From contig CAZDDI010000003.1 of assembly GCA_964504195.1 (NCBI GenBank), forward strand, positions 83,380 to 147,379: a stretch of DNA of 64,000 nt, given 5' to 3'. Positions 17,568 to 35,897 of the stretch are shown here, piece by piece. Every line of letters starts with the position of its first letter. Positions within the stretch are counted from its first letter, which is position 1. Position numbers and translations under genes: made by a program. Under the pieces are notes generated by a model. It was not told the origin of the DNA, did not search any database, and saw nothing but the letters and a program-made list of their open reading frames with translations. Source of the DNA: an uncultured Anaerolineales bacterium (GTDB lineage Bacteria > Chloroflexota > Anaerolineae > B4-G1 > SLSP01).

Positions 17568-17930
17568 ATGAAGAGCTTAGAAGAATTGCGGAAGATAAAA
17601 GAACGGGCGTTGGAGCGGCGACAGCTGGCAGGGGCGGGGGCGCGCGCGCGGGTGACGGTGGCGATGGGCACGTGCGGTATCGCGGCGGGCGCGCGGGACA
17701 CCATGACGGCCATCCTCAACGAGATGGAGAAGCGCCAGCTGACCGATGTGGTGGTCACGCAGACCGGGTGCATGGGCCTGTGCGAGTACGAGCCGCTGGT
17801 GCAGATCCAGGTGGGTGAGGAAGAAGTGGTCACTTACGGCAAAATTGATCCCTCTCGCGTCCCCGACCTCATCGAGGCGCACCTGGTCAAGGGCGAACCG
17901 GTTGCAGCGTGGCAGGTACAGACGCAATAA
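17568..17930 (+). CDS. Small thioredoxin-like [2Fe-2S] ferredoxin-domain protein (HndB/NuoE-N-like), copy 1
   Basis: 120 aa with MGTCGI...TGCMGLCEYEP. A GGAGGG RBS is present. It is 97% identical to 28701-29063. Confidence 0.7.
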   Translation: MKSLEELRKIKERALERRQLAGAGARARVTVAMGTCGIAAGARDTMTAILNEMEKRQLTDVVVTQTGCMGLCEYEPLVQIQVGEEEVVTYGKIDPSRVPDLIEAHLVKGEPVAAWQVQTQ

Positions 17931-18069
17931 GCCCGCGTTTCCATGTGCCATTGGCATACCAACGCTGACGAAAATGTAATGCGAACTATTAGTTCGCAAC
18001 CACGCGAAGCAGACGCTTCGCGCTACGTCAGGCTTGATTTGTGATTTGCAGATTTTTTGAGGAGGTAGT

Positions 18070-19842
18070 ATGGTTTACCGCGCACATGTCTTGATCTGCG
18101 GGGAACCCCGTTGTGTTGAAAAGGGCGCGCGGGATGTTGAGGCGGCGCTGACCCAAAAAATACAGGAGCTGGGCCTGGAAAACGAGGTCCAAATTCTGGA
18201 AGCCAGCGCGCTAGGGCATGGCGAACAAGGCCCGGAACTGGTGGTCTACCCCGAAGGCGTCCATTACGTCAACCTGCGCCCGGAAGACGCCACGCGCATT
18301 GTTGAAGAGCATCTGTTCAAGGGACGCCCCATCGCGGAATTGCAGTACAAAGAACCGCCTTCGGAGCCGCTGCCCGCGCCATCCCACAAAGAAATCCGCG
18401 TGGTGCTGGATAAAATCGGCAAAATTGATCCCGAAAATATTGATGATTACATCGCGCTGGATGGCTATGCCGCGCTGGCGAAAGTGCTGGGCGGGATGTC
18501 CCGCGACGAGGTGCTGGTCGTGCTCAAAACGTCCGGGCTGCGCGGGCGCGGCGGGGCGGGCTTCCCTACCCACCTCAAGTGGAGTTTCGCCAAGAACGCG
18601 CCCGGCGATGTGAAATACGTCATCTGTAACGCTGATGAGGGCGACCCCGGCGCGTTCATGAACCGGCGCGTGCTCGAAGGCGACCCGCACGCCGTCATCG
18701 AAGGTATGGCGATTGCGGCGTATGTCATCGGCGCGCGGCAGGGCTATATCTATGTTCGCGCCGAGTACCCCATCGCCATCAGCACTTTGCGCGTGGCATT
18801 GGCACAGGCCCGCGAGTATGGTCTGCTGGGGGAAAACATCCTCGACACTCATTTTAGTTTCGATCTGGAAATCCGCATGGGCGCGGGGGCCTTCGTCTGT
18901 GGCGAAGAGACCGCGCTGATGAAATCCATCGAAGGCGTGCGGGGGATGCCGACCACCCGCCCGCCCTTCCCGGCCACGTCGGGCCTGTGGGGCAAGCCCT
19001 CCAACATCAACAACGTAGAGACCTACGCCAACGTGCCGCAGATTTTGCTCAAGGGCGGCGCGTGGTTTGCCTCGATGGGCACGGAGAAGAGCAAGGGCAC
19101 CAAGACCTTTGCGGTGGCCGGAAAAGTGGCGCGCACTGGCTTGATCGAAGTGCCGCTGGGCATCACCATTCGCGAAATCGTCTACGATGTGGGCGGCGGT
19201 GTGCTCGATGGCAAGAAGTTCAAGGCCGTGCAGACCGGCGGCCCGATGGGCGGTTGTATCCCAGAGAAGTATCTTGACCTGCCGGTGGATTACGAAAACC
19301 TGGCGGCCGTCGGCTCGATCATGGGTTCGGGCGGCTTCGTCGTGATGGATGAAGAAACCTGTATGGTGGATATCGCTCGCTTCTTCATGGAGTTCACGCA
19401 GGAAGAATCGTGCGGTAAATGTGTGCCGTGCCGCGTGGGCACCCGGCGGATGTTGGAGATTCTCGAACATATCTGCGCGGGCAAGGGCAAGCCCGGTGAT
19501 ATCGAGATGCTGGAAACCCTGGCCGAGAAGATCGGTTTTGGCTCGTTGTGCGGGCTGGGTCAGGGAGCGCCAAATCCGGTGCTCAGCACGCTAGAGCACT
19601 TCCGTGACGAGTACGAGGCACACATCTACGAGAAGCGCTGCCCGGCGAAGGTCTGCAAGGCCCTGATCGAGTACCGCATCGAGGCCGAGACCTGTATCGG
19701 CTGCACACGCTGCGCTCGTAACTGCCCGGTCAACGCCATTAGCGGCAAGGCCAAACAGGTGCATGTGATTGATCCTGAGACCTGCATCCGCTGCGGTATC
19801 TGCGCGCAGGTTTGTCCGGTAGACGCCGTGAAAGTTGAGTGA
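18070..19842 (+). CDS. NuoF-like NAD(P)H-binding flavoprotein subunit (HoxF/HndC/HydB-type) with N-terminal Trx-like domain and C-terminal 2x[4Fe-4S] ferredoxin domain, copy 1
   Basis: The motifs are GRGGAGFPTHLKWSF (NADH/FMN site) and ESCGKCVPCRVG ([4Fe-4S] N3). The C-terminal CIGCTRCARNCP and CIRCGICAQVCP are two ferredoxin motifs. Confidence 0.85.
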   Translation: MVYRAHVLICGEPRCVEKGARDVEAALTQKIQELGLENEVQILEASALGHGEQGPELVVYPEGVHYVNLRPEDATRIVEEHLFKGRPIAELQYKEPPSEPLPAPSHKEIRVVLDKIGKIDPENIDDYIALDGYAALAKVLGGMSRDEVLVVLKTSGLRGRGGAGFPTHLKWSFAKNAPGDVKYVICNADEGDPGAFMNRRVLEGDPHAVIEGMAIAAYVIGARQGYIYVRAEYPIAISTLRVALAQAREYGLLGENILDTHFSFDLEIRMGAGAFVCGEETALMKSIEGVRGMPTTRPPFPATSGLWGKPSNINNVETYANVPQILLKGGAWFASMGTEKSKGTKTFAVAGKVARTGLIEVPLGITIREIVYDVGGGVLDGKKFKAVQTGGPMGGCIPEKYLDLPVDYENLAAVGSIMGSGGFVVMDEETCMVDIARFFMEFTQEESCGKCVPCRVGTRRMLEILEHICAGKGKPGDIEMLETLAEKIGFGSLCGLGQGAPNPVLSTLEHFRDEYEAHIYEKRCPAKVCKALIEYRIEAETCIGCTRCARNCPVNAISGKAKQVHVIDPETCIRCGICAQVCPVDAVKVE

Positions 19843-19854
19843 CAAGGAGGCAGC

Positions 19855-20343
19855 ATGGATAAAGCGTTGACCCAAACGATACATCGGGCGCTCACGCGCC
19901 ACGCTAACAGTCAGGAATCTCTGGTGGAAATGCTGCGCGAGATCAACGCCGAGCTAGGCTATTTGAGTGCGGAGACGTTGGGCGGGTTGGCCGATGCGCT
20001 GAAATTGCCGCGCAGCCAGGTGCTCAGCGTTGCTAGCTTCTACAGTATGCTCGATTTGGAACCGCGCGGGACGCACGTCATCAAGCTGTGCCAGGACGCG
20101 CCGTGCCACGTCGCCGGCGGACAGGAGATTTGGGAGACCCTGGAGCGTGAGTTGGGGATCAGCTTTGGCGCGACTACACCGGATGGCAAATGGACGCTGC
20201 TGACGACCAGCTGCATCGGCGCGTGCGCGGTCGGGCCGGTGATGATGGTGGATGACGACATCTACGGCAATCTCACCCCGGAGCGGGTGCGGGAGATTCT
20301 CGCGCAGGTTGCCGACCAAGACCGGGCAGGAGGTAGAACATGA
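19855..20343 (+). CDS. NuoE-like [2Fe-2S] subunit (HoxE/HndA-type)
   Basis: CQDAPCHVAGG...TTSCIGACAVGPV is the NuoE 2Fe-2S cysteine pattern. A GGAGG RBS is present. Confidence 0.85.
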   Translation: MDKALTQTIHRALTRHANSQESLVEMLREINAELGYLSAETLGGLADALKLPRSQVLSVASFYSMLDLEPRGTHVIKLCQDAPCHVAGGQEIWETLERELGISFGATTPDGKWTLLTTSCIGACAVGPVMMVDDDIYGNLTPERVREILAQVADQDRAGGRT

Positions 20344-21920
20344 TACGCGCGCATGTGTTGATTTCCGGGGATGCGCTGAGCCTCTCGCGCGGCGCAGAGG
20401 AAACCCGGCTTGCCATCGAGGCAGAGCTCTCGTTTCTGGGGCTAGATAAGGAAGTGCTGGTGAGCTACACTAGCCAGGTAGAGCGCACGGATGAGTTGCC
20501 GATGGTGATGGTCTTCCCAGAGGGGATCCGGTATGGCTCAGTTCATCCGGAGGACGGTGCGTACATTGTCCAGGAGCATCTCTACAAAGGGCGTATTGTT
20601 GAACATTTGCGGTTGCCTCCGGAAATACTCTCTGGTCACATTGTACATATACCTGGCAAACTTGGCGCGCTCTACGCGCAGAAGCGCGTGGTCTTGCGCC
20701 GTGCCGGTCTGATTGATCCCACTAGTATTGAAGACTACATCGCCCACGACGGCTACTTTGCGCTGGGCAAAGCCCTCACCGAGATGCAATCGGCTGACGT
20801 GCTGCAAGCGGTAAAAGATTCCGGCTTGCAAGGTCGCGGCGGCGCGGGTTTCCCCACCGGCTTGAAATGGAGCTTCGCAGTGAACCAGCCGGGCGAGAAG
20901 TACATCGTCTGCAACGCGGATGAATCCGAGCCGGGCACGTTCAAGGATCGCCTGATCCTGGAGGGCGACCCGCACGCCGTGTTGGAAGGCATGGCCCTCG
21001 CCGGGTATGCCTGTGGCGCGGCGCAGGGCTGGATTTACATTCGCGGTGAGTATGTGCAGGCGCGCGAACGGCTCGAGCACGCCATCAAGCAGGCGGAAGA
21101 GTACGGGCTGCTGGGCGACAACATCATGGAGACCGGGTTCTCCTTCCACATCCATGTCCACGCGGGCGCGGGCGCGTATGTCTGCGGTGAGGAAACGGCT
21201 CTGCTGGAAAGCCTCGAAGGCAAACGCGGCACGCCGCGCATCCGTCCGCCGTATCCCACAGTGCGCGGTTTTCGCGATCAACCGACGCTGGTCAACAACG
21301 TGGAGACGCTAGCGAATGTGCCGGCCATTATCCTCAACGGGTCGGACTGGTTCCGCTCCATTGGGACGCACACCAGCCCTGGCACCAAGGTCTATACCAT
21401 GCTGGGCGATGTCAACATCACCGGTTTGATCGAAGTGCCGATGGGCATCACTCTCCGCGAAGTCATCGAAATCTACGGCGGCGGCGTGAAGAACGGCAAG
21501 GCCTTCAAGTGCGCGCAGACGGGCGGCGCTTCCGGCAGCATCATCCCGGCAGCGTTGCTGGATGTGCCGATGGATTTTGCTTCGATGCAGGCGCAGGGCG
21601 CGTCCCTGGGCAGCGGTGCGCTTCTGGTGTGTGACGAGGATACCGATGTGGTAGACCTGGCTTATGTGCTGGTGCGCTTCTTTGCAACTGAATCGTGCGG
21701 CAAGTGTGTGCCCTGCCGGGTGGGGTCAGCGCAAATGTTGGAGGCGCTGGAACGGCTGCGCAAGGGCTATGCCAAACCTGCCGATTTGCAGCGGCTTGAA
21801 GAGATTGCCACCCATGTTCAGGAAACCTCATTCTGCGGCCTGGGGCAGGCCGCGCCAGTGCCGATTCTTACCGGGCTACGCTTCTTCCGCGCCGAGTTCG
21901 AGGCCCGCGTACAAGCCTAG
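20340..21920 (+). CDS. Second NuoF-like flavoprotein subunit (no C-terminal ferredoxin domains; degenerate Cys-less N-terminal Trx-like domain)
   Basis: GRGGAGFPTGLKWSF and ESCGKCVPCRVG motifs. ATGA overlap with the upstream gene. Confidence 0.85.
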   Translation: MIRAHVLISGDALSLSRGAEETRLAIEAELSFLGLDKEVLVSYTSQVERTDELPMVMVFPEGIRYGSVHPEDGAYIVQEHLYKGRIVEHLRLPPEILSGHIVHIPGKLGALYAQKRVVLRRAGLIDPTSIEDYIAHDGYFALGKALTEMQSADVLQAVKDSGLQGRGGAGFPTGLKWSFAVNQPGEKYIVCNADESEPGTFKDRLILEGDPHAVLEGMALAGYACGAAQGWIYIRGEYVQARERLEHAIKQAEEYGLLGDNIMETGFSFHIHVHAGAGAYVCGEETALLESLEGKRGTPRIRPPYPTVRGFRDQPTLVNNVETLANVPAIILNGSDWFRSIGTHTSPGTKVYTMLGDVNITGLIEVPMGITLREVIEIYGGGVKNGKAFKCAQTGGASGSIIPAALLDVPMDFASMQAQGASLGSGALLVCDEDTDVVDLAYVLVRFFATESCGKCVPCRVGSAQMLEALERLRKGYAKPADLQRLEEIATHVQETSFCGLGQAAPVPILTGLRFFRAEFEARVQA

Positions 21921-21975
21921 CAGCGCTACCTGAAGCTGCTTCACAGAAGATTTATTTCAAGGAGTGAAGGAACTC

Positions 21976-23673
21976 ATGAGCGAGATACATTTGAACATTA
22001 ACGGGCAGGACGTTGTGGCGCAGAGCGGCCAGACGGTGCTGGAGGCTGCGAAGTCTGCCAGCATTGAGATTCCGGTGCTTTGTCATCATCCGGCGCTCAC
22101 CAACTGGGGCGCATGCCGCATGTGCGTGGTCGAAGTGGAAGGGATGCGCACGGTGCAGACTGCCTGTACGCTTCCGGTGTCCGAGGGTATGAAGGTCACA
22201 ACGCATACCGAAAAAACCACCAGCCTGCGCAAGTTCGTGCTGGAGCTGCTGTTCTCTGAGCGCAACCACTATTGCATGTACTGCCAGATGAGCGGTGATT
22301 GTGAGCTGCAAGATCAGGCTTACGCGCACGGTCTGGATCACTGGACTTATCCGCGCCCTTACGAGAAATTGAGCGTGGATGCGTCACGCAAATACTTCAT
22401 CATGGATCACAATCGCTGTATCCTCTGCTCGCGCTGTGTCCGTGCGTGTAGCGAGGTGGCGGCGAATCACACCCTGAACCTGCGCAATCGCGGGGCCAAG
22501 ACGATGATTGTGGCCGACCTGGATGTGCCGTTTGGCGAATCCAGCTGCGTGGAGTGCGGCTCCTGTTTGCAGGTGTGTCCCACCGGCGCGCTGGTGGATG
22601 CCAAGAGCGCCTACGGTGGGCGCGAGAAGGACGTGACGCACACCATCACGACCTGTATGCAGTGCAGCATTGGCTGTGAGCTGGATGTGGTGACGCGCTA
22701 CAGCCGCCTGCTCCGCGTGGACGGCGTCTGGGGGGCTGACCCCAACGGCGGCCTGCTGTGTGTGGATGGCCGCTTCAAGCCGCTGTACGAAGAGCGCAAG
22801 CGCATCACCGCCCCGATGCTCCGCAAGGATGGCAACCTGGTCGAGGCTTCCTGGGATGAGGCGCTCGCGCTGGTCGCCGAGAAGCTCCAGGGCGGCGAGT
22901 GCCAGGGCCTGGCCGCGTGCGCCACCACCAACGAGGCGTTGGCGGCCTTCGCGCAGCTCATCGCCAAAGTGGGTGGCAAGGCCGGGCGGCTCGAACCGGT
23001 CGCCCCGACGTTGGGCTACGGCACACCCGCCAAAGTTACGGACGTGCTCGACGCCGATTTCATCATCGTGGCCGGGGCGCAACCGCTGGATTACCAGCGC
23101 GTCGTCGGCTACTTCATCCATCGTGCTGCCGACAAGAAAGTGCCGGTCGCGGTCATCAGCGACTCAGAGAACGCCCTCAGCCCGCGCGCAGCTATGACGG
23201 TCGCCTCAGCGCAGGCAGGTGTAGTGGCGCAGGCCGCTGCCGCCGCCGCGAAGGTCGTGCTGGTCTACAGCGTGGGCCTCAAGCCGGAAGTGATTGCCGC
23301 GCTCAAGCCGCTGGGCGACAAAGTCCACTTCCTGGCGCTCGACCCGGCGCGGAATGGCAAGGGGGCGGAAGCTGCAGGTCTCAAGCCGCAAGCCCCAAGC
23401 AAAGTGGATGTGGGATATTTCCTGTTGGGTGAACAACTGCTGGATGAGACGCTCCAGCCGAAGGCGGGCTTCAAGGTGGTGCAGGCTGCGTACTTCTCGC
23501 CGCTGGCGGAGCAGGCCGATGTGGTGCTGCCCACGCCGATTTGGTCGGAGCGTAGCGGGCACATCACCAATCTCGATGGGACGGTCAAGCCGTTGAATGT
23601 GGTGTTGCCCGCGCCCGCCGGCGTCCGCGACGAGGTGGAAGTCCTGGCGCAGCTGGCCGCACTGTTGGCATAA
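21976..23673 (+). CDS. NuoG/HoxU-like FeS subunit (N-terminal 2Fe-2S + 4Fe-4S domains, truncated molybdopterin-oxidoreductase-like C-terminus lacking a catalytic domain)
   Basis: The N-terminus is INGQDV...CHHPALTNWGACRMCVVEV, a 2Fe-2S ferredoxin-type sequence. A His(Cys)3 cluster follows, then CxxCxxC ferredoxin motifs and CMQCSIGC (the MopB N-terminal 4Fe-4S). Confidence 0.8.
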   Translation: MSEIHLNINGQDVVAQSGQTVLEAAKSASIEIPVLCHHPALTNWGACRMCVVEVEGMRTVQTACTLPVSEGMKVTTHTEKTTSLRKFVLELLFSERNHYCMYCQMSGDCELQDQAYAHGLDHWTYPRPYEKLSVDASRKYFIMDHNRCILCSRCVRACSEVAANHTLNLRNRGAKTMIVADLDVPFGESSCVECGSCLQVCPTGALVDAKSAYGGREKDVTHTITTCMQCSIGCELDVVTRYSRLLRVDGVWGADPNGGLLCVDGRFKPLYEERKRITAPMLRKDGNLVEASWDEALALVAEKLQGGECQGLAACATTNEALAAFAQLIAKVGGKAGRLEPVAPTLGYGTPAKVTDVLDADFIIVAGAQPLDYQRVVGYFIHRAADKKVPVAVISDSENALSPRAAMTVASAQAGVVAQAAAAAAKVVLVYSVGLKPEVIAALKPLGDKVHFLALDPARNGKGAEAAGLKPQAPSKVDVGYFLLGEQLLDETLQPKAGFKVVQAAYFSPLAEQADVVLPTPIWSERSGHITNLDGTVKPLNVVLPAPAGVRDEVEVLAQLAALLA

Positions 23674-23683
23674 GGAGTCACGC

Positions 23684-24238
23684 ATGGGTAAAATTAAAGT
23701 TGCAACGGGGTGGTTGGAGTCGTGCGCCGGCTGCCACATGTCGTTTTTGGATATTGACGAGCGCATTGTCGAGTTCTTTAAGCACGTCGAGCTGACCTCT
23801 TCGCCGATTACCGATCTGAAACACCCGCCCATAGAGGGCGTGGATGTGGGCATCCTCACCGGCGGTATCGGCAATGAGGATCAGATTCACGAGGCCAAAG
23901 AGATGCGCGAGCGGAGCAAAATCCTCATCGCGCTGGGCGATTGCGCGGTCACGGGCGGTATCTGTACCATGCGCAACTTCTTCCCCCTGGAAGAGGTGCT
24001 GCGGCGCGGGTACATCGAGACCGAGAGCACGGTGGATGGCGAGATTCCGGCACACGAGGATCTAGCCGTGTTGACAGACCAGGTCAGCGGCATAGATGAG
24101 GTTGTGCCGGTAGACATCTATCTGCCCGGCTGCCCGCCCACCGCCGACGCGATCTGGTTTGTGTTGACCGAATTGTTGGAGGGCCGGATGCCGAAGTTGG
24201 AAGGCAAGGTCCTGAAGTATGGTATGGATGGGGGGTAA
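23684..24238 (+). CDS. hoxY: [NiFe]-hydrogenase small subunit, HoxY-type (group 3)
   Basis: MGKIKVATGWLESCAGCHMSF...LGDCAVTGGI...LPGCPPTADAI is the short NuoB-like small subunit typical of bidirectional hydrogenases. Confidence 0.8.
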   Translation: MGKIKVATGWLESCAGCHMSFLDIDERIVEFFKHVELTSSPITDLKHPPIEGVDVGILTGGIGNEDQIHEAKEMRERSKILIALGDCAVTGGICTMRNFFPLEEVLRRGYIETESTVDGEIPAHEDLAVLTDQVSGIDEVVPVDIYLPGCPPTADAIWFVLTELLEGRMPKLEGKVLKYGMDGG

Positions 24239-24246
24239 AACATAGT

Positions 24247-25671
24247 ATGGCTGAGAAAATTACCATTTCACCCGTGACCCGTATCGAGGGCCACGCGAAA
24301 ATCACGATCTACGTTGGCGATGACGGGAAGGTGACGGATTCGTACTTCCATGTGGAACAGTTCCGGGGCTTCGAGAAGTTCAGCGAAGGCCGCATGTTCT
24401 ACGAAATGCCCCAGATCACGCCGCGCACCTGCGGCATCTGCCCGGTGAGCCATCACCTGGCTTCGACCAAAGCTTGTGACGTGATCGCCGGCACCGCGCC
24501 GACGCCCACCGCGCACAAGCTGCGCGATCTGATGCACATGGGGCAGATGATCCAGTCGCACGGGATGCACTTCTTCGAGCTGGCCGGCCCGGACTTCATC
24601 ATGGGCTTCGACGCCGACCCGAAGGTGCGCCATGTGGGCGGCGTCATCGGCGTGAACCCTGATCTGGCCGTGAAGGCGGTCAAGTTGCGCGCCTTCGGGC
24701 AGGAGATCATCCGCAAGCTGGGCGAGCGGCGCGTGCATCCGATCTTCGGCGTGCCGGGCGGGGTGACCCGCCCGCTCGATCCCGCCGACCGCGAGTGGAT
24801 TTTGCGCGAGGTGGACAATCACATCGCCACGACGATGGTGGGCATCTCGTTCCTCAAGAGCTGGATGCAGGATAACCACCAGATGATGGAGGAGTTCGCC
24901 GTGTTCCCCTCGGCCTACATGGGGCTGGTGCAGCCGGATGGCGCGCTGGAGCTCTATGATGGGCAGCTGAAGATGGTGGACGCGGACGGTTCATTCCTGG
25001 AGCAGTTCGATCCGGCGGACTACCTGGACTACATCGCCGAGCACGTCAATCCCTATACCTATCTCAAGGCCCCGTACTACAAAAAGCGTGGCTACGAGAA
25101 GGGCATCTATCGCGTTGGCCCGCTGGGGCGGTTGAACGTCGCCACCCACATTAACACGCCGATGGCGCAGAGCGAGATGCGGCTGTGGAAGCAGCTCAAC
25201 GGCGGTAAGCCCGTCGAGGGGACGCTGTACTTCCACTACGCGCGGCTCATCGAGACGGTGTATGCTCTGGAGCATGTGAAGGGGCTGATGGATGATCCCG
25301 ACATCCTGGGGACGGATGTGGTGGCCCCGCCCGGACACATCACCGGCGAGGGCGTGGGTGTGCTCGAGGCGCCGCGCGGTACGCTCTTCCATCACTACTG
25401 GACCGACAGCAATGGCGTAATCCAAAAGGTGAACATGATCGTCGCCACCGCCGGCAACGCCTGGGCGATGAACCACTCAGTCAACATGGCCGCCAAGCGC
25501 TATGTTGACGGCACGCAGCTCACCGAGGGGATGCTCAACCGCGTTGAGCACGCCATCCGCGCGCATGACCCGTGCCTCTCCTGCTCGACCCACGCGATAG
25601 GGCAGATGCCTATCCAGATCGAGCTCATCGGGTCAGATGGAGCTGTGCTGGATGTGTTGAAGCGGGATTAG
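24247..25671 (+). CDS. hoxH: [NiFe]-hydrogenase large subunit, HoxH-type, with cleavable C-terminal extension
   Basis: The N-terminal motif is RTCGICPVSHHLAS and the C-terminal motif is DPCLSCSTHAIGQMPIQ... The tail after His is the substrate of the maturation protease. Confidence 0.85.
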   Translation: MAEKITISPVTRIEGHAKITIYVGDDGKVTDSYFHVEQFRGFEKFSEGRMFYEMPQITPRTCGICPVSHHLASTKACDVIAGTAPTPTAHKLRDLMHMGQMIQSHGMHFFELAGPDFIMGFDADPKVRHVGGVIGVNPDLAVKAVKLRAFGQEIIRKLGERRVHPIFGVPGGVTRPLDPADREWILREVDNHIATTMVGISFLKSWMQDNHQMMEEFAVFPSAYMGLVQPDGALELYDGQLKMVDADGSFLEQFDPADYLDYIAEHVNPYTYLKAPYYKKRGYEKGIYRVGPLGRLNVATHINTPMAQSEMRLWKQLNGGKPVEGTLYFHYARLIETVYALEHVKGLMDDPDILGTDVVAPPGHITGEGVGVLEAPRGTLFHHYWTDSNGVIQKVNMIVATAGNAWAMNHSVNMAAKRYVDGTQLTEGMLNRVEHAIRAHDPCLSCSTHAIGQMPIQIELIGSDGAVLDVLKRD

Positions 25672-25778
25672 CTTTTACAAATTCCACGCGAAGCCTTGGC
25701 GGACTGAGTCTACCAGGGCTTTTGCTTTTCCAATTTAGTGATATACAATGCGCTACAGGCGAAAGTAAGGGGAGTAAT

Positions 25779-29202: not shown

Positions 29203-30975
29203 ATGGTTTACCGCGCACATGTCTTGATCTGCGGGGAACCCCGCTGTGTCGAAAAGGGCGCGCGGGACGTCGAGGCGGCGCTGACCCAAAAAATACAGGA
29301 ACTGGGCCTGGAAAACGAGGTCCAAATTCTGGAGGCCAGCGCGCTGGGGCATGGCGACCAAGGGCCGGAGCTGGTCATCTACCCCGAAGGCGTCCATTAC
29401 GTCAACGTGCGTCCGGAAGATGCGGCGCGCATTGCTGAGGAGCATCTGCTCAAAGGGCGTCCCATCGCGGAATTGCAGTACAAAGAGCCGCCGAGCGAAC
29501 CGTTGCCTGCGCCTTCTGTCAAAGAAATTCGCGTGGTGCTGGGCAAAATCGGCAAAATTGACCCGGAAAACATTGAGGATTACATCGCGCTGGATGGCTA
29601 CGCCGCACTGGCGAAGGTGTTGGGCGGCATGTCCCCCGATGATGTGCTGGCCGAGCTTAAAACATCCGGGCTGCGTGGCCGTGGTGGTGCGGGTTTCCCC
29701 ACGCACCTCAAGTGGAGCTTCGCCAAGAATGCACCCGGCGATGTGAAATACGTCATCTGTAACGCTGATGAGGGTGACCCCGGTGCGTTTATGAACCGGC
29801 GTGTGCTCGAAGGCGACCCGCACGCCGTCATCGAGGGGATGGCGATTGCGGCGTATGTCATCGGCGCGCGGCAGGGCTACATTTACGTCCGTGCCGAGTA
29901 CCCCATCGCTATCAGCACCTTGCGCGTGGCGCTGGCGCAGGCCCGCGAGTATGGGTTGCTGGGAGAGAACATCCTCGGTACCGATTTCAGCTTTGACCTG
30001 GAAATCCGCATGGGGGCCGGCGCCTTCGTCTGTGGTGAAGAGACCGCGCTGATGCAATCTATCGAAGGCGCGCGCGGGATGCCCACCACGCGCCCCCCGT
30101 TCCCCGCCACCAAGGGTTTGTGGGGCAAGCCTTCCAACATCAATAACGTGGAGACCTACGCCAATGTCCCGCAGATTTTGCTCAAGGGCGGTGCGTGGTT
30201 CGCCTCGATGGGTACGGAGAAAAGCAAGGGCACCAAGACCTTCGCCATTGCGGGGAAAGTGGAACGCACCGGGCTGGTGGAAGTGCCGTTGGGGATGACC
30301 ATCCGCGAAATCGTCTATGATGTGGGCGGTGGCGTGCTCGATGGCAAAAAGTTCAAGGCCGTGCAGACCGGCGGGCCGATGGGTGGTTGTATTCCGGAGA
30401 AGTACCTGGATTTGCCTGTGGATTACGAGAATCTTGCCGCAGTGGGTTCTATGATGGGGTCGGGCGGTTTTGTCGTGATGGACGAAGAAACCTGTATGGT
30501 GGACATCGCCCGCTTCTTCATGGAGTTCACGCAGGATGAGTCGTGCGGCAAGTGTGTGCCGTGTCGCATCGGTACGCGGCGGATGCTGGAGATTCTCAAC
30601 GATATTTGCGCGGGCAAGGGCAAGTCGGGTGATATCGAGATGCTGGAACAGTTGAGCCGCTATATCAACAAAGGCTCGTTGTGCGGCCTGGGTCAGGGTG
30701 CGCCGAACCCCGTGCTCAGTACGTTGGAACACTTCCGCGATGAGTATGAGGCGCACATCTTCGAGAAGCGCTGCCCGGCGAAAGTTTGCAAGGCCCTGAT
30801 CGAGTACAAGATCGAGCCGGACGCCTGTATCGGCTGCACGCGCTGCGCGCGCAACTGCCCGGTCAACGCCATTGCGGGTTCGCCCAAGCAAGTGCATGTG
30901 ATTGACCCTGAGACGTGCATCCGCTGTGGCATCTGCAAGCAGGTCTGCCCGGTCAACGCGGTCTACATCGAGTAG
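29203..30975 (+). CDS. NuoF-like flavoprotein subunit with C-terminal 2x[4Fe-4S] domain, copy 2 (FDH-associated)
   Basis: About 93% aa identical to 18070-19842 and has the same motifs. Confidence 0.85.
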   Translation: MVYRAHVLICGEPRCVEKGARDVEAALTQKIQELGLENEVQILEASALGHGDQGPELVIYPEGVHYVNVRPEDAARIAEEHLLKGRPIAELQYKEPPSEPLPAPSVKEIRVVLGKIGKIDPENIEDYIALDGYAALAKVLGGMSPDDVLAELKTSGLRGRGGAGFPTHLKWSFAKNAPGDVKYVICNADEGDPGAFMNRRVLEGDPHAVIEGMAIAAYVIGARQGYIYVRAEYPIAISTLRVALAQAREYGLLGENILGTDFSFDLEIRMGAGAFVCGEETALMQSIEGARGMPTTRPPFPATKGLWGKPSNINNVETYANVPQILLKGGAWFASMGTEKSKGTKTFAIAGKVERTGLVEVPLGMTIREIVYDVGGGVLDGKKFKAVQTGGPMGGCIPEKYLDLPVDYENLAAVGSMMGSGGFVVMDEETCMVDIARFFMEFTQDESCGKCVPCRIGTRRMLEILNDICAGKGKSGDIEMLEQLSRYINKGSLCGLGQGAPNPVLSTLEHFRDEYEAHIFEKRCPAKVCKALIEYKIEPDACIGCTRCARNCPVNAIAGSPKQVHVIDPETCIRCGICKQVCPVNAVYIE

Positions 30976-30995
30976 CCGAGATTGCGAGGGATAGG

Positions 30996-31475
30996 ATGAC
31001 AATGAATACAACTTTGATGGACACTGTTTTTGAGCGTTACGGGAGCGATGCAGAAGCGCTGGTCGAAATCCTCCGTGATCTGAACCAGGCTGAGGGCTAC
31101 CTCTCCCAAGAACTGATGATAGCCGTAGCTGACCGGCTGCGCTTGCCGCGCGGTCATGTGTTTAGTGTGGCTTCGTTCTATAGTATGATGAATGTAAAAC
31201 CGCGTGGGCAGCATGTGGTGCTGATGTGCCAGGATGCGCCCTGTCATATAGCTGGCGGGCGCGAGGTCTGGGACGCGCTGGAAGAGACACTGGGCATCGC
31301 CTTTGGCGAGACCTCGCCCGATGGCAAGTGGACGCTGGAAGTCGCCAGCTGCCTGGGTCTGTGCGCGGTTGGCCCGGTGGTGCAGATTGATGGTGAAGTG
31401 TACGGCAATATGACCCCAGACAAGGTGCGGGCATTGCTGGTGCGCTTCGATGGGGATGCAGGAGGTGCAGCATGA
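30996..31475 (+). CDS. NuoE-like [2Fe-2S] subunit (paralog of 19855-20343)
   Basis: CQDAPCHIAGG...ASCLGLCAVGPV. About 55% identical to the hydrogenase-operon paralog. Confidence 0.8.
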   Translation: MTMNTTLMDTVFERYGSDAEALVEILRDLNQAEGYLSQELMIAVADRLRLPRGHVFSVASFYSMMNVKPRGQHVVLMCQDAPCHIAGGREVWDALEETLGIAFGETSPDGKWTLEVASCLGLCAVGPVVQIDGEVYGNMTPDKVRALLVRFDGDAGGAA

Positions 31476-33133
31476 TCCGCGCCCGTGTGATGATTTCTGG
31501 CGACCCCATCAGCCTGGCCCATGGCGCTGAGGCGCTCAAGCTGGCGATGGAAGCGGAACTGGCTTATTACGGCCTGGAAAACGAGGTGCAGGTGGGCTTC
31601 ATCGGGCAGGTGGGCCGCCGCGACGTGCTGCCGTTTGCGCTGGTCTATCCTGAAGGTACGCTGTATGGCCCGCTGCGGCTGAGCGATGTGCCGTTCCTGG
31701 TGCAGGAGCATCTCTACAAGGGGCGCGTGGCCGAAGCGCTGTTGGCCCCGCCCGATGTATTGTCCGGTAAAATTGCCCGTCTGCCCCGGCGCGAGGGCGT
31801 GCTTTACGGGCAGCAGCGCGTGGTCTTGCGCCGCGCGGGTTTGATTGACCCCAAGAATATCGAAGAGTACATCGCGCACGATGGATATTTCGCGCTGGGT
31901 AAGGCCGTCACCGAGATGACGCCCGCCGAGGTGCTGCAAACCGTGAAAGATTCCGGCTTGCAGGGACGCGGCGGCGCAGGTTTCCCCGCCGGGGTGAAGT
32001 GGGGCTTTGTAGCTGCGCAACCGGGCGATGAGAAGTACATTGTCTGTAACGCGGATGAATCTGAGCCGGGCACGTTCAAGGATCGCCTGATCCTGGAAGG
32101 CGACCCCCACGCGGTGCTGGAAGGTATGGCCCTGGCCGGGTATGCCTGTGGCGCATCGCAGGGCTGGATTTACATTCGCGGCGAGTACACGCTGGCGAAA
32201 GAGCGCATCGAGCTGGCAATCCAGCAGGCTGAAGAGCTGGGTGTGCTGGGCAACAACCTCTTTGAGAGCGATTTCTCGTTCCATATTCACGTCCACGCGG
32301 GTGCGGGCGCGTATGTCTGCGGCGAGGAGACGGCGCTGCTGGAGAGCCTCGAAGGCAAGCGCGGCATCCCGCGCATCCGTCCGCCGTATCCACCAGTGCA
32401 GGGCTATCACCAGAAGCCCACCGCTGTCAACAACGTGGAAACGCTGGCGAACGTACCGGCGATTATCCAGAATGGCGCGGCGTGGTATCGCGGCATCGGC
32501 ACGGAAAAAAGCCCCGGCACCAAGGTCTATACTATGCTGGGCGATGTGAATGTGACGGGCCTGATCGAAGTGCCGATGGGCATTACCCTGCGCGAAGTCA
32601 TCGAAGTCTACGGCGGCGGCATGAAGGGCGAGCTGGCGTTCAAGTGCGCGCAGACCGGCGGCGCGGCGGGCAGCATCATCGCCCCGGCGCTGCTGGATGT
32701 GCCGATGGATTTCGCTACGATGCAGGCGAACGGCGCCTCTTTGGGCAGCGGCGCGTTGCTCGTCTGCGGCGAGGATAAGTGTATCGTAGACCTGGCTTAC
32801 GTCTTGATGCGCTTCTTTGCGACCGAATCGTGCGGCAAGTGCGTTCCCTGTCGTTTGGGCACGCGCCGCATGGTGGAGATTCTGGATCGCCTGCGACATG
32901 GACATGGCACGCTGGAAGACCTGGATGCGCTCGAAATAATGGCGCCGCAAGTCATTGCGACCTCGTTCTGCGGGTTGGGGCAGGGCGCGCCGGTTTCAAT
33001 CATTACCGCGCTACGCCACTTCCGCGCCGAGTTCGAGGCCCACGTCGCCGGGACCTGTCCCGCGGGCGTTTGTCCTATGCACAGTCCGGTGGCCGAGCAA
33101 CCGGTATCGCACGCCTACCTGGCGTTTGCTTAA
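31472..33133 (+). CDS. NuoF-like flavoprotein subunit (paralog of 20340-21920)
   Basis: GRGGAGFPAGVKWGF and ESCGKCVPCRLG motifs. ATGA overlap with the upstream gene. Confidence 0.85.
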   Translation: MIRARVMISGDPISLAHGAEALKLAMEAELAYYGLENEVQVGFIGQVGRRDVLPFALVYPEGTLYGPLRLSDVPFLVQEHLYKGRVAEALLAPPDVLSGKIARLPRREGVLYGQQRVVLRRAGLIDPKNIEEYIAHDGYFALGKAVTEMTPAEVLQTVKDSGLQGRGGAGFPAGVKWGFVAAQPGDEKYIVCNADESEPGTFKDRLILEGDPHAVLEGMALAGYACGASQGWIYIRGEYTLAKERIELAIQQAEELGVLGNNLFESDFSFHIHVHAGAGAYVCGEETALLESLEGKRGIPRIRPPYPPVQGYHQKPTAVNNVETLANVPAIIQNGAAWYRGIGTEKSPGTKVYTMLGDVNVTGLIEVPMGITLREVIEVYGGGMKGELAFKCAQTGGAAGSIIAPALLDVPMDFATMQANGASLGSGALLVCGEDKCIVDLAYVLMRFFATESCGKCVPCRLGTRRMVEILDRLRHGHGTLEDLDALEIMAPQVIATSFCGLGQGAPVSIITALRHFRAEFEAHVAGTCPAGVCPMHSPVAEQPVSHAYLAFA

Positions 33134-33167
33134 GCTTACATCGAATTATTGAGTTAAGGAGGACTGC

Positions 33168-35897
33168 ATGTCTCAAATGATCAATCTAACCATTGATGGC
33201 AAGCGCGTCGCCGTGCCAGGTGGTTCAACGGTATTGGAAGCGGCCCAGGCCGCCGGTATTGAAATCCCGACCTTGTGCCATCATCCCGCGCTCACGCCCA
33301 CCGGCTCGTGCCGCCTGTGCGTGGTTGCGGTTGAGGGGATGCGGGGGCCGACGACGGCCTGCACCCTGCCCGCAAACGAGGGCATGGTGGTCAACACGCA
33401 CACCGACGAGGTAGTGACGCTGCGCAAGTTCGTGCTCTCGATGCTGCTCACCGATCACCCTAACGATTGTATGAAGTGTGAGGTGGACGGCAACTGCGAG
33501 TTGCAGCGCTGGGTCTATGAGTACGATGTGGAATGGCCGGTGCATAGCGGTGCGCGCCACGCCTATCCTATAGATTCTGACCCCAATCCGGTGGTCTTTG
33601 TGGATATGAATAAGTGTATCCTGTGCGGGCGCTGTGTGCGCACCTGTCAGGAGATTCAGGGCTGCGACGTGTGGAACTTCTCGCAGCGCGGGTTCGATAC
33701 GCACGTTGTCGCCGGGGCTGAGCAGCTGATGCTCGATTCCGGCTGCGAGTCCTGCGGTAACTGTGTTGCAATCTGCCCCGTCGGCGCGCTGTTCGACAAG
33801 CCTTCGATTGGGTGGGGACGCGCGGCCTATCAAGAGAAAGTCCGCACGACCTGCACCTACTGCGGCGTCGGTTGCCAGTTCGATTTCAACGTCAAAGACG
33901 GCAAGATCACGCGCGTTACCTCCGCTGAGGATGCGCCGGTCAACGGGCTGGCGTTGTGCGTGAAGGGCCGCTATGGGTGGGACTTCATCCATCGCGAGGA
34001 TCGCCTGACCGCTCCGCTTATCCGCGACGAGAGCGTGACCGACGGCCCTTGGCCGGGCTTCCGCGAGGCGAGTTGGGACGAGGCACTCGATCTGGTCGCC
34101 AGCAAGCTGACACACTACCGCGACACGACCGGCCCGGATAGCGTAGGCTATCTGAGTTCGGCGAAATGCACGAACGAAGAGAATTATTTGATGCAGAAGA
34201 TCGCGCGTGGTATCGGCAAGACCAATAACGTAGATCACTGCGCGCGCCTGTGCCACGCCTCCACGGTGGCGGGCCTGGCGACGACGTTGGGCAGCGGTGC
34301 GATGACCAACTCGATTGAAGATAGCACGATGCAGAGCAAAGTGCTCTTTGTCATCGGCTCGAACACCACCGAGCAGCACCCGGTCATCGGCACGAAGATG
34401 CGCAAGGCTGTGCGCGAGAACGGCACGAAGATCATCGTGGCCGACCCGCGCCGCATCAGCCTGACGCGCCTGCCGGGCTGCCTGCACTTGCAGCAGCGGC
34501 CTGGTACGGATATCGCGCTGGTCAACGGCCTGATGCGCGAAATCCTGGTCAACGGCTGGGAGGATGCGGAGTACATCGCCGCGCGCACGGAAGGTTTTGA
34601 GGAACTCAAAACTGTGGTGATGACGTACACGCTGGAGAAGACTGAGGAAATTACTGGTGTCCCGGCGGCGAAAATTGCTGAGGCAGCGCGCATCCTGGGC
34701 GAGAACAAGCCCGGCGCGGTCTTCTGGTCTATGGGTATCACGCAGCACACCACCGGTGTCTACAACGTGATGTCGCTCTCGAATATGCAGATGCTTTTGG
34801 GCAACCTGGGCGTCGCGGGCGGCGGTGTGAACCCGCTGCGCGGGCAGAACAATGTACAGGGTGCGTGCGACCTGGGCTGTCTGGTCAACGTCTACCCCGG
34901 CTATCAGGCCGTTACCAATCCCGATTTCAAGGCCAAGTTCGAGAAGGCCTGGGGTGTTGAGGGGCTGTCGGATAAAGTGGGTTTGACTGTGGTTGAGCAG
35001 ATGCACGCGGCGCACGATGGCCGGGTCAAAGCATTGTTCATCATGGCTGAAAACCCAATGACCTCCGACCCTGATCTCAACCATGTCAAAGAGGCGCTGG
35101 AGACGGTGGACTTCCTGGTGGTGCAGGAAATCTTCATGAGCGAGACGGCCAAGTTCGCGGATGTGATTCTGCCGGGTCTGTCGTTCGCGGAGAAAGAAGG
35201 CACGTTTACCAATACTGAGCGCCGCATCCAGCTGATTCGCAAGGCGGTGGAAGGCCCAGGCATCGCGCGCGCCGACTGGGAAATTCTCTGCGATCTGGCG
35301 ACGCGCATGGGCTATCCCATGCACTACAACAGCCCGGCGGAGATCATGGATGAGATGGCGCAGGTAACGCCGATTTATGCGGGCGTCCACTTCTCCCGTC
35401 TGGAGGCTGGTGAGCAGCTCTGCTGGCCGGTGAAGGGCGACGAGCATCCCGGCACACCGATCCTGCACATCGGACAGTTCTCGCGGGGCAAGGGCCTCTT
35501 CAAGGCGCTTGAGCACATCGAGCCGCAGGAAGCGCCCGATGCCGAGTATCCGTTCACGATGACGACAGGGCGCGTGATCTACCACTGGCACGGCGGCGAG
35601 CAGACGCGCCGTTCGGAGAGCCTGATGGCGCTCTATCCAGGGCCGCGTGTGGAAATCAACCCGGCGGACGCTTCGCGGCTGGGCGTCGTCGAAGGGGACG
35701 ACCTCAAGGTGGCCTCGCGGCGCGGCGAGTTCCACGCCAAGGCGGAAGTGACGGAGCGCGTAGAGCCAGGCATCATCTTCGGCACCTTCCACTTCCCGGA
35801 GGGTAACGTCAACTGGGCCACCGGCGCGTTCCTCGACCCCATCGCCAAGATTCCGGAGTTCAAGGTCACGGCGGTGAAAGTGGAGAAGGTCGCGTAA
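33168..35897 (+). CDS. fdhA: Formate dehydrogenase catalytic (alpha) subunit, molybdopterin-dependent, Cys-type, with fused NuoG-like N-terminal 2Fe-2S/4Fe-4S domains
   Basis: 909 aa. The N-terminus parallels the HoxU-like gene (INLTIDGKRV...CHHPALTPTGSCRLCVV). The catalytic-site block NNVDHCARLCHASTVAGL has Cys at the position occupied by Sec in FdhF-type enzymes. MopB and molybdopterin dinucleotide-binding regions are present. Confidence 0.85.
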   Translation: MSQMINLTIDGKRVAVPGGSTVLEAAQAAGIEIPTLCHHPALTPTGSCRLCVVAVEGMRGPTTACTLPANEGMVVNTHTDEVVTLRKFVLSMLLTDHPNDCMKCEVDGNCELQRWVYEYDVEWPVHSGARHAYPIDSDPNPVVFVDMNKCILCGRCVRTCQEIQGCDVWNFSQRGFDTHVVAGAEQLMLDSGCESCGNCVAICPVGALFDKPSIGWGRAAYQEKVRTTCTYCGVGCQFDFNVKDGKITRVTSAEDAPVNGLALCVKGRYGWDFIHREDRLTAPLIRDESVTDGPWPGFREASWDEALDLVASKLTHYRDTTGPDSVGYLSSAKCTNEENYLMQKIARGIGKTNNVDHCARLCHASTVAGLATTLGSGAMTNSIEDSTMQSKVLFVIGSNTTEQHPVIGTKMRKAVRENGTKIIVADPRRISLTRLPGCLHLQQRPGTDIALVNGLMREILVNGWEDAEYIAARTEGFEELKTVVMTYTLEKTEEITGVPAAKIAEAARILGENKPGAVFWSMGITQHTTGVYNVMSLSNMQMLLGNLGVAGGGVNPLRGQNNVQGACDLGCLVNVYPGYQAVTNPDFKAKFEKAWGVEGLSDKVGLTVVEQMHAAHDGRVKALFIMAENPMTSDPDLNHVKEALETVDFLVVQEIFMSETAKFADVILPGLSFAEKEGTFTNTERRIQLIRKAVEGPGIARADWEILCDLATRMGYPMHYNSPAEIMDEMAQVTPIYAGVHFSRLEAGEQLCWPVKGDEHPGTPILHIGQFSRGKGLFKALEHIEPQEAPDAEYPFTMTTGRVIYHWHGGEQTRRSESLMALYPGPRVEINPADASRLGVVEGDDLKVASRRGEFHAKAEVTERVEPGIIFGTFHFPEGNVNWATGAFLDPIAKIPEFKVTAVKVEKVA

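Follow-up and report, generated by a model that had tools for sequence, protein, structure and literature searches.

Two tandem operons of an Anaerolineales bacterium each place a bifurcating-type and a non-bifurcating-type NuoF-like flavoprotein ahead of one catalytic module

Why would an operon that ends in a single hydrogenase or formate dehydrogenase encode two NuoF-like flavoproteins? This question is raised by a 64-kb stretch of DNA from an uncultured Anaerolineales bacterium (contig CAZDDI010000003.1; hereafter the window, with positions counted from its first letter), in which two neighbouring operons each place such a pair ahead of one catalytic module. A first-pass annotation had proposed that both operons encode flavin-based electron-bifurcating complexes. 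Genes were defined from a list of open reading frames (ORFs), from Pfam scans and from gene calls made on public contigs of identical sequence. Judged by their residues, the two flavoproteins are of different types: one, here called B, resembles the β-subunits of bifurcating enzymes, and the other, D, those of non-bifurcating, NADH-dependent enzymes.

Operon 1 (17568-28068) and operon 2 (28701-35897) are co-directional on the + strand and share a four-gene cassette, A-B-C-D. Its genes are A1 (17568-17930), B1 (18070-19842), C1 (19855-20343) and D1 (20340-21920) in operon 1, and A2 (28701-29063), B2 (29203-30975), C2 (31002-31475) and D2 (31472-33133) in operon 2. The spacer between B and C is 12 nucleotides (nt) long, and the C1 stop overlaps the D1 start, with a C/D overlap of 4 nt. 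All genes of the first-pass annotation were recovered in place on the + strand, and its view of the two modules as paralogous was borne out by amino-acid identities of 98% for A, 92% for B, 53% for C and 73% for D and by a 4.4-kb collinear DNA match at 79% identity that links both cassettes. In operon 1, the cassette is followed by G1 (21976-23673), the small (23684-24238) and large (24247-25671) subunits of a [NiFe]-hydrogenase, a two-gene insertion and a maturation endopeptidase. In operon 2, it is followed by a formate dehydrogenase α-subunit (33168-35897) and a terminator-like hairpin (35917-35948, +; a 14-bp stem and then a T-run), which closes the operon.

The long flavoprotein B (590 amino acids in both operons) carries PF01512 (flavin mononucleotide, FMN), PF10531 (SLBB), PF10589 (NADH_4Fe-4S) and a C-terminal 2x[4Fe-4S] Fer4 domain. 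This is the domain set of BfuB (FMN, SLBB, NADH_4Fe-4S, 4Fe-4S ferredoxin-type) in the Bfu family, and both B1 and B2 have it. Among solved structures, B1 is closest to chain B of the bifurcating NiFe-HydABCSL of Acetomicrobium mobile (7t2r_B, 835 bits). Other bifurcating HydB, StnB and NfnB chains score 634-802 bits, as against ~406 bits for complex I Nqo1 and ~370-410 bits for complex I NuoF and FdsB.

Signature residues and ligands from PMC7311640 and PMC9304861 were mapped onto alignments with A. mobile HydB. The published cofactor sites share names with some of our genes; a site is meant wherever the words cluster or site are used. B1 and B2 are alike in all residue states: A-F-M at the AFM positions, Phe in GAGAxVCGEE and GGPMG at the GGPSG position, so that AFM and Phe of the signature of Losey et al. 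2020 (PMC7311640) are kept and GGPMG stands where GGPSG is expected; that signature has Ala or Glu and Met on either side of the Phe of AFM. The B1 cluster has CCCC, the Cys/His B2 (Zn) site has C,C,H,C,C, and the ferredoxin tail has eight Cys; the ligands of the minimal bifurcation site and those of the Cys/His B2 site are therefore all present in both copies. The motifs GRGGAGFPT, NADEGDPGAFM and GAGAFVCGEETAL are likewise intact in both. The N-terminal thioredoxin (Trx) domain of B is degenerate, with two of its four cluster Cys kept (C,C,A,G at the B5 site), and B1 and B2 lack the four-Cys N-terminal B5 site given for Bfu enzymes in PMC9304861. Schut et al. 2022 describe these four Cys as conserved in all Bfu enzymes (PMC9304861), while later work shows the B5 site to be dispensable for bifurcation and B1-FMN-C1 to be the minimal site (PMC11829005).

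The same pattern extends to the 120 nearest homologs of B, every one of which has AF[M/S], Phe, GGP[M/L]G, CCCC and the 8-Cys tail. The Cys/His site reads CCHCC in 118, CTHCC in one and CSHCC in one, and a full four-Cys B5 site occurs in 0 of the 120. By its residues, B is of bifurcating type except that GGPSG has Met for Ser and that half of the N-terminal B5 ligands are gone. The first-pass description of the long NuoF as HydB/HytB-like, with an extra N-terminal Trx-like domain, stands on the 835-bit match, AFM and Phe, CCHCC and the 8-Cys tail; it needs amending in that the N-terminal domain keeps just two of its four Cys. A separate variation on B is seen in two double-flavoprotein loci of relatives from Caldilineaceae (L020 and L021; B gene at ~6250-9321), in which the C-terminal 2x[4Fe-4S] domain is swapped for a GltD/NfnB-like Fer4_20 and Pyr_redox_2 region in a protein of 1023 amino acids. 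This suggests that NADP(H) may take the place of ferredoxin on the low-potential branch there. Single-flavoprotein loci from other phyla (L039-L042, L079, L080, L082) also encode proteins of similar length (~1010-1020 amino acids).

The shorter flavoprotein D (526 amino acids in D1, 553 in D2) has different residues at the same positions: T-F-K at the AFM positions, Tyr at the Phe position, and GGASG or GGAAG, not GGPSG. D1 and D2 keep CCCC at the B1 cluster and have neither a C-terminal ferredoxin domain nor the N-terminal B5 Cys. The N-terminus of D is also a Trx-like domain, without any Cys. The Cys/His site is gone in D1 (D,R,R,-,-), and D2 keeps four of the five ligands (C,R,H,C,C). Beyond its Pfam domains, D1 passes the NCBIfam NuoF model NF010120 (429 bits, cutoff 389). 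All of the 120 nearest D homologs have T[F/Y]K, Tyr, GGxxG without Pro and CCCC, and none has a ferredoxin tail; about one third have lost the Cys/His site, as D1 has. D1, D2 and all 120 homologs thus carry the features of non-bifurcating, NADH-dependent β-subunits (Syntrophomonas wolfei and Syntrophus aciditrophicus HydB, NuoF, FdsB), in which Thr or Ser and Lys, Ser or Ala occupy the AFM positions, an assignment that concerns residues only and not clade.

Because the ferredoxin-type domain is absent, D1 and D2 are not BfuB. B and D are homologous and ~50% identical, and since D carries T-F-K, Tyr and no GGPSG they are not equivalent copies of a 'double NuoF'. A second, shorter NuoF, as the first-pass annotation had it, is indeed present in each operon, but with a Cys-free N-terminal Trx-like domain of its own and a non-bifurcating pocket it is not the equal of B. 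D keeps CGEET, a motif associated with a preference for NADH (E183 of E. coli NuoF) and present in NADH-specific NuoF. A paper on NADP-dependent formate dehydrogenase gave no NADPH-specificity determinants by which D could be judged.

The first-pass annotation had asked where both NuoF paralogs fall on a tree, and the answer is clear for B and ambiguous for the deep placement of D. In neighbour-joining trees (midpoint-rooted, without bootstraps and without named NuoF or FdsB sequences as outgroup), the B proteins of double-flavoprotein loci nest within the bifurcating (AFM/AYM) group, and core identity of B1 is 58% to bifurcating types and 45% to non-bifurcating ones. The D proteins form a separate deep clade, which falls with the T-F-K/Tyr sequences under midpoint rooting; core identity of D1 averages ~50% to bifurcating and ~48% to non-bifurcating types. 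An origin of D as a recent duplicate of B was rejected, as D forms its own deep clade. A clean grouping of D with NuoF/FdsB was not achieved either, core identity to both groups being nearly the same.

The smallest cassette protein, A (120 amino acids, three Cys), had been read as a small Trx-like 2Fe-2S protein. The fold stands, but A1 has only three Cys and reaches 23.6 bits against PF01257, under the gathering threshold of 24.8 bits, and it matches the HydD/HndB-like small proteins; A also takes the position of hydD in A. mobile-type gene order. The A. mobile enzyme as purified contains no HydD (PMC8880783), and the Cys of A are lost in several relatives. The idea that A might provide the missing N-terminal cluster of B in trans was considered; across lineages, Cys loss in A and in the N-terminus of B tends to co-occur, and this tracks phylogeny. 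Both A-B spacers hold a palindrome, GCGAACT-(3-5 nt)-AGTTCGC (17980-17998 and 29127-29142). These spacers are 139 nt long, compared with ~30-60 nt in relatives, and outside the palindrome their identity is only 52-61%. As an RNA hairpin or as a binding site for a protein, the palindrome could tune the expression of A versus B.

C1 (162 amino acids, four Cys) and C2 (157 amino acids) are the NuoE-like subunits that had been assigned to each operon. Both match PF01257 (E=1e-45 to 1e-47; 4.5e-47 for C1) and have the CxxxxC...CxxxC pattern of a NuoE/HydC-like [2Fe-2S] subunit. C1 also passes the NCBIfam NuoE model (153 bits, cutoff 141), and its best solved relative is 7t2r_C (HydC, 124.6 bits), with E. 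coli NuoE at 114 bits. The adjacent BfuC and BfuA of Bfu enzymes have their counterparts in C1/C2 and in G1 or the N-terminus of the formate dehydrogenase, C being the paralog that neighbours D in relatives.

Operon 1 had been described as ending in HoxU-like, HoxY and HoxH subunits, a reading that did not hold. The supposed HoxU is G1, a 565-amino-acid NuoG/HydA-like iron-sulfur protein that scores 310 bits against HydA (7t2r_A, its best solved relative) and 147 bits against HoxU (5xf9_B). Like the N-terminus of the formate dehydrogenase, with which its NuoG-like part is 37% identical, G1 has Fer2_4, NADH-G_4Fe-4S_3 and Fer4 domains. Its Cys/His motifs would accommodate one [2Fe-2S] and four [4Fe-4S] clusters. 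Besides a Molybdop_Fe4S4 domain it contains a molybdopterin domain in degenerate form; a Pfam scan found no FeFe hydrogenase (H-cluster) domain in it. The small subunit (184 amino acids; PF01058, E=2e-29) has Cys for one cluster. The large subunit (474 amino acids, with a C-terminal extension and the motifs RTCGICPVSH and DPCLSCSTH) scores 579 bits against A. mobile HydL (7t2r_D), 401 against MvhA and 386 against the NAD-reducing soluble hydrogenase (SH; 5xf9_D). The features of NiFe-HydABCSL are therefore all there (HydA without H-cluster, single-cluster HydS, group-3 HydL and a HydB/HydC core), and those of HoxEFUYH group 3d (a single HoxF, a ~240-amino-acid HoxU and an SH-type HoxH) are not. 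Operon 1 is of HydABCSL type with a NuoE/NuoF pair between hydB and hydA; because of these extra subunits, C and D, we class it as a variant of that type rather than as a typical member.

The operon extends to 28068, where the maturation endopeptidase (27559-28068, +; 169 amino acids, HydP/HoxW-like; TIGR00072, 76 bits, cutoff 47) is parted from the large subunit by a two-gene HEC-01 insertion (25779-27553, +). PADLOC matches identify HEC-01A, an AAA_21 ATPase (E=2e-150), and HEC-01B, a DUF4276 protein (E=5e-77), so this insert is a candidate anti-phage system. Its G+C content (GC) is ~52%, compared with ~60% in the flanks. The protease lies directly 3' of the large subunit in relatives (L086, L017, L010 and L006). 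L002 and L003, two independent contigs from other assemblies of the same sequence, both end ~110-130 nt into the large-subunit gene, near the same point, which suggests strain variation or an assembly break and may have to do with whether the insert is present.

The catalytic end of operon 2 fared as first described, as a formate dehydrogenase with a fused NuoG-like part. The 909-amino-acid protein contains PF00384, PF01568 and PF04879, passes the Fdh-alpha equivalog TIGR01591 (850 bits, cutoff 666) and has Rhodobacter capsulatus FdsA (6tg9_A, 748 bits) as its best solved relative. It has the features of an FdsA/FdhF-type α-subunit, namely a bis-pyranopterin guanine dinucleotide (bisPGD) site with Cys or selenocysteine (Sec) followed by His, Molybdop_Fe4S4 and the dinucleotide-binding domain. 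The catalytic position is Cys362-His363, in ARLCHAS, so that Cys, not Sec, had been named correctly; this codon aligns to TGA-His in relatives. At codon 362, an in-frame TGA is found in five related loci (L011-L015) and Cys in six (L022, L030, L032, L034, L036, L041). By sequence, then, members of this formate dehydrogenase family in related Anaerolineae alternate between Sec and Cys as catalytic residue.

Is the pairing of B and D peculiar to this window? A search seeded with D1 gave 80 loci from species-representative genomes, each of which was annotated against the window proteins. All loci with D-type proteins belong to Chloroflexota (Anaerolineae, Anaerolineales, Thermoflexales, Caldilineaceae, Brevefilum, Roseilinea, Mesolinea). 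The usual order is [CBS/HATPase, DRTGG, PHP]-HydC'-HATPase_c-A-B-C-D-(G-S-L-protease or formate dehydrogenase), and B-C-D precedes a NiFe or formate dehydrogenase module in ~28 of 33 informative Anaerolineae loci. B is absent from five: L008, L009 and L088, which have unrelated genes upstream, L031, which keeps A, and L011. A B-seeded search returned HydC'-HATPase-A-B-C-D followed by a NiFe or formate dehydrogenase module in four of four sampled contigs. Compared with the operon of A. mobile, which runs hydC, hisK, hydD, hydB, hydA, hydS, hydL, hydP (PMC8880783, PMC9304861), the order in relatives is the same with C-D placed between hydB and hydA. L008, L009 and L088 (Anaerolineales/Anaerolineae metagenome-assembled genomes) contain stand-alone C-D-G-S-L operons without A or B, and these look like the NiFe counterpart of non-bifurcating, NADH-dependent FeFe hydrogenases.

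HydC' is a second NuoE-like protein, ~30% identical to C; that of L006 scores 150 and 135 bits against bifurcating HydC chains and 94 bits against NuoE. It precedes B in every relative with enough upstream sequence. No HydC' or HATPase gene lies upstream of A1 or A2, and tblastn over all 64 kb finds C1 and C2 only. In L086, whose operon is closest to operon 1 (D 87% identical), both HydC' and the HATPase gene are present and the HEC-01 insert is missing.

How the two operons arose can be read from their divergence. Between operons, A and B are 82-96% identical in DNA. Synonymous and nonsynonymous divergence (dS and dN) are 0.28 and 0.017 for A1/A2, 0.65 and 0.05 for B1/B2 (dN/dS 0.08), 1.27 and 0.38 for C1/C2, and 0.80 and 0.19 for D1/D2. 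Because dS between copies (0.28-1.27) contrasts with 1.1-3.7 between the cassette genes and their orthologs in L006 and L017, the whole cassette was duplicated in its own lineage after the split from these relatives. A, B, C and D are all under purifying selection (dN/dS 0.06-0.30), and protein-level change in C and D is four to twenty times that in A and B. We suppose that C and D would contact the differing catalytic modules, while A and B would keep shared partners (NAD(H), ferredoxin and each other), and the dN contrast fits an adaptation of C and D to distinct catalytic partners. Gene conversion was considered as the cause of the likeness of A and B and for the most part rejected, since dS of B (0.65) is close to that of D (0.80); stronger purifying selection explains most of the difference between A/B and C/D. 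The lower dS of A (0.28) leaves some room for conversion.

What, then, would the two flavoproteins do? The reading that we favour, holding it with about as much confidence as doubt, is that the product of each operon is a cytoplasmic, NAD(H)-linked redox enzyme of several subunits that belongs to the HydABC/Bfu family and has a two-flavoprotein input, in which C-D-G would form the trunk, B a ferredoxin branch and D a second NADH port. The product of operon 1 would be an A. mobile HydABCSL-type [NiFe]-hydrogenase and that of operon 2 an FdsA-like Mo/W formate dehydrogenase (CO2 reductase). C-D-G would dock on the catalytic module as a NuoEFG-like trunk, with G1 or the N-terminus of the formate dehydrogenase predicted to carry the cluster chain that joins FMN to the active site in solved homologs. 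This path is FMN-B1-A1-A2-A3-S1-[NiFe] in hydrogenases and FMN-B1-A1-A2-A4-A5-pterin in FdsABG (PMC8880783, PMC11829005). In the same structures, a mobile [2Fe-2S] domain of the NuoE-like subunit hands low-potential electrons to the C-terminal clusters of the β-subunit and then to ferredoxin, and the B2 and B5 sites, which can bind Zn, are not required (PMC8880783, PMC11829005).

B holds the known bifurcation machinery apart from a HydC' of its own; D holds only FMN, the NADH pocket and the B1 cluster. The ferredoxin branch of B would run from FMN through the B1 cluster and a mobile [2Fe-2S] cluster to the C-terminal clusters, and B would let the enzyme couple H2 or formate to NAD(H) and ferredoxin. 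During fermentation, confurcation would yield H2 or formate, and the enzyme running backwards would bifurcate. D would give NADH a second point of entry, free of coupling. Because no HydC' is encoded nearby in the window, B would have to pair with C or with a HydC' encoded elsewhere. The first-pass proposal of bifurcating complexes is thus upheld for B, which is predicted to be of bifurcating type and, with C1, G1 and the large subunit, matches the 7t2r chains best, and it falls short for D, which is of non-bifurcating type. That B and D sit as two FMN flavoproteins, one of bifurcating type and one restricted to NADH, in a single particle of a previously undescribed Bfu class is a narrower suggestion, which we regard as possible yet doubtful.

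Several points weigh against this two-flavoprotein enzyme. B has GGPMG in place of the strict GGPSG, and it is without two of the four N-terminal Cys that Schut et al. call universal. The phylogenetic position of D is ambiguous, as its core identities to both groups are near equal. Neither operon has HydC', the companion of B in every relative with enough upstream sequence. The subunit composition is inferred from gene order only. The features peculiar to B in double-flavoprotein loci belong to one monophyletic clade and may reflect lineage drift rather than co-adaptation. Finally, a thermodynamic argument of our own holds that a non-bifurcating NADH site on a shared mid-potential chain should short-circuit the coupling, which favours separate assemblies.

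This last argument makes a serious contender of an alternative that we nonetheless consider rather unlikely, in which each operon would yield two enzymes, B (with HydC' or C) and D (with C) competing for one docking site on G or the formate dehydrogenase. Cells would then hold a mixture of ferredoxin-coupled bifurcating and NADH-only forms, flexible across H2 and formate pressures, and the short circuit between two sites on one cluster chain would be avoided. Single-flavoprotein forms of both kinds do exist, as C-D-G-S-L in L008, L009 and L088 and as HydC-HydB-HydA-S-L in A. mobile (PMC8880783); an identity of ~50% between B and D makes a common docking site plausible; and relatives encode two NuoE-like genes, one for each flavoprotein. 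Each operon of the window, however, has just one catalytic module and one NuoE-like gene, and if a cell made both forms, ferredoxin coupling would still be lost by way of the H2 or formate pool that they share. The divergence of the cassette is also unexpected if B docks as D does: B1/B2 have a dN of 0.05 and D has diverged four times more, although G1 and the N-terminus of the formate dehydrogenase are only 37% identical.

It is improbable that B, with A, works outside the hydrogenase and formate dehydrogenase, as a separate or regulatory/sensory flavoprotein beside an ordinary NADH-dependent C-D-G-catalytic enzyme. The purified A. mobile enzyme lacks HydD (PMC8880783), regulatory-looking genes (CBS/HATPase, DRTGG, PHP, HATPase_c) lie upstream in relatives, A and B are near identical across the operons, and C-D-G-S-L occurs elsewhere as an independent operon, all of which would suit such a role. 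Yet the FMN, NADH, [4Fe-4S] and ferredoxin-domain ligands of B are all kept under strong purifying selection, and in all Bfu enzymes of solved structure the homolog of B forms part of the complex as a structural subunit. B alone would have no thermodynamically sensible reaction, and its gene sits between the hydD-like A and C, with a 12-nt spacer to C.

About as improbable is an ordinary NAD+-linked HoxEFUYH or FdsABG with a redundant NuoF paralog, the outcome that the first-pass annotation had named as refuting its own proposal. Automatic public annotations call B and D both simply NuoF or HndC, D passes the NCBIfam NuoF model, and the formate dehydrogenase α-subunit is FdsA-like. Against these stand the scores of B (835 bits to bifurcating HydB, ~400 to NuoF/FdsB), its bifurcating-type residues and ferredoxin domain, a HydA-like G1 of 565 amino acids instead of a ~240-amino-acid HoxU, and a large subunit closer to HydL than to the NAD-reducing SH (579 and 386 bits). 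Moreover, the B-D pairing is kept across many species with both proteins under purifying selection, and neither B nor D is therefore a decaying duplicate. That the tandem arrangement is an assembly artefact of the near-identical A/B repeats (82-96% in DNA), as the breaks of the L002 and L003 assemblies within the large-subunit gene might hint, is scarcely credible, given that an independent 89-kb contig from the European Nucleotide Archive (ENA; L001) has both operons in the same order, that the repeats have diverged (dS 0.28-0.65) between differing flanks and A-B spacers, and that intact copies of each operon type occur in many other genomes.

Among known systems, the closest to operon 1 is A. 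mobile NiFe-HydABCSL (PDB 7T2R/7T30; Feng et al. 2022, PMC8880783), whose chains are the top solved-structure matches for B1, C1, G1 and the large subunit. Operon 1 shares its hydD-hydB-...-hydA-hydS-hydL-protease order, an H-cluster-free HydA with five-cluster Cys/His motifs, a one-cluster small subunit, and a B with AFM, Phe, CCHCC and the C-terminal 2x[4Fe-4S] domain. It differs in the added C-D pair with non-bifurcating-type residues between hydB and hydA, in a B with two of the four N-terminal cluster Cys gone and GGPMG for GGPSG, in the absence from the window of the hydC' and HATPase genes that relatives have, in the length of G1 (565 compared with 692 amino acids) and in its host phylum, Chloroflexota and not Synergistota.

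Operon 2 resembles R. capsulatus FdsABG (PDB 6TG9/6TGA) and Fdh-Bfu (PMC9304861) in its fused NuoG-like N-terminus, Cys-His site and NuoE-/NuoF-like partners, and Type 1 Fdh-Bfu (PMC9304861) in having the pterin domain within the BfuA-like subunit. In contrast to both, it has two flavoproteins, a Bfu-type B and a D with an FdsB/NuoF-like pocket, together with a HydD-like gene, and its relatives alternate Sec and Cys at the catalytic codon. D itself carries the β signature of the non-bifurcating HydAB(C) of S. aciditrophicus and S. wolfei (Losey et al. 2017, 2020; PMC5626996, PMC7311640), with Thr, Lys, Tyr, no GGPSG and no ferredoxin domain. Unlike these HydB proteins, D has at its N-terminus a Trx-like domain that lacks a cluster, in most cases retains the Cys3His site typical of Bfu β-subunits, and would serve a NiFe or formate dehydrogenase module while being co-encoded with a bifurcating-type β-subunit.

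Two further comparisons concern the coupling itself. Cyanobacterial HoxEFUYH has been reported as bifurcating/confurcating (bioRxiv 10.64898/2026.06.25.734504), and it resembles the product of operon 1 as a soluble NAD(H)-/ferredoxin-linked [NiFe]-hydrogenase with NuoE-/NuoF-like subunits; it differs in a HoxU of ~240 amino acids and in a single flavoprotein without a C-terminal ferredoxin domain. HoxF-type proteins of Solibacter loci have AFM, Phe and GGPSG, and so share AFM and Phe with B of the window. The StnABC/NfnABC transhydrogenases (PDB 8OH5, 9N5U; PMC10482914, PMC11829005), whose B subunits B matches at 722-760 bits, are Bfu enzymes with two flavin/nucleotide sites per complex, which shows that the mid-potential chain can function with a second nucleotide port. 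At that second site, however, they have a GltD-like flavin adenine dinucleotide (FAD) domain that binds NADPH, whereas D is a NuoF-like FMN subunit.

In the literature searched, coverage of which was partial, we found no description of a bifurcating-type and a non-bifurcating-type β-subunit in one hydrogenase or formate dehydrogenase operon, and none of Anaerolineae enzymes with this layout, in keeping with the first-pass remark that two flavoproteins per complex are atypical. Papers on Hydrogenedentota, Dehalobacteriia, Margulisbacteria and Moorella do not describe the two-flavoprotein layout. Schut et al., whose survey excluded metagenomic data, list NiFe-Bfu solely for Synergistetes and Halorhabdus, and Fdh-Bfu in Chloroflexi without a second flavoprotein (PMC9304861). 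Two features published as universal for Bfu, the four B5 Cys and GGPSG, are missing from the sequence of B.

The genes around the operons fit H2 and formate metabolism. Upstream, a molybdenum/tungsten cofactor (Moco/Wco) riboswitch (RF01055; 12132-12250, +; 63.8 bits, Rfam gathering score 36) precedes a Peripla_BP_2 binding protein, a FecCD permease and an ABC ATPase at 12437-15778 (+), possibly for uptake of molybdate or tungstate for the formate dehydrogenase. The Rfam scan found no RNA element inside operon 1 or 2. Past the formate dehydrogenase, the interval 36133-41632 holds a 155-amino-acid ORF without family match, a Y_phosphatase3 protein, a DUF3267 protein, a β-carbonic anhydrase (37466-38098), a FocA-type formate/nitrite transporter (38792-39658, -), a MobA-like transferase (39892-40500) and a CobW/HypB-like GTPase (40688-41632). 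FocA and MobA also neighbour the formate dehydrogenase in related loci, joined by FdhD in L091 and L092.

Elsewhere in the window, very large ORFs fill 45079-59707 (-), among them ORFs of 1999 and 1016 amino acids; those of 575 and 904 amino acids have no Pfam match. A low-GC segment (GC 0.447) lies at 48-50 kb. At 8026-11001 (+), the precomputed annotation of the identical contig gives a protein of ~990 amino acids with NACHT and FGE-sulfatase domains.

Of the families of flavin-based bifurcating enzymes, Bfu (HydABC-type) is the least understood, and the determinants of NuoF-like bifurcation are still debated. The placing of B beside D before one catalytic module, throughout a class, is a natural experiment on these determinants and on the wiring of modules. 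Should the loci not encode one complex, they would still extend NiFe-Bfu to Chloroflexota and define a stand-alone NiFe hydrogenase of NuoE-NuoF-HydA type, with residues suggesting NADH dependence. If B and D do share one complex, this would be a new enzyme architecture. It could work in two modes, yielding H2 or formate from NADH alone at low product pressure and from NADH plus reduced ferredoxin at high pressure, although D might instead be the port for a different nucleotide, and one portable cassette would serve a [NiFe]-hydrogenase and a formate dehydrogenase alike. Anaerolineae abound in digesters and sediments as fermenters and partners in syntrophy, and there their disposal of NADH and ferredoxin as H2 or formate matters for carbon flow.

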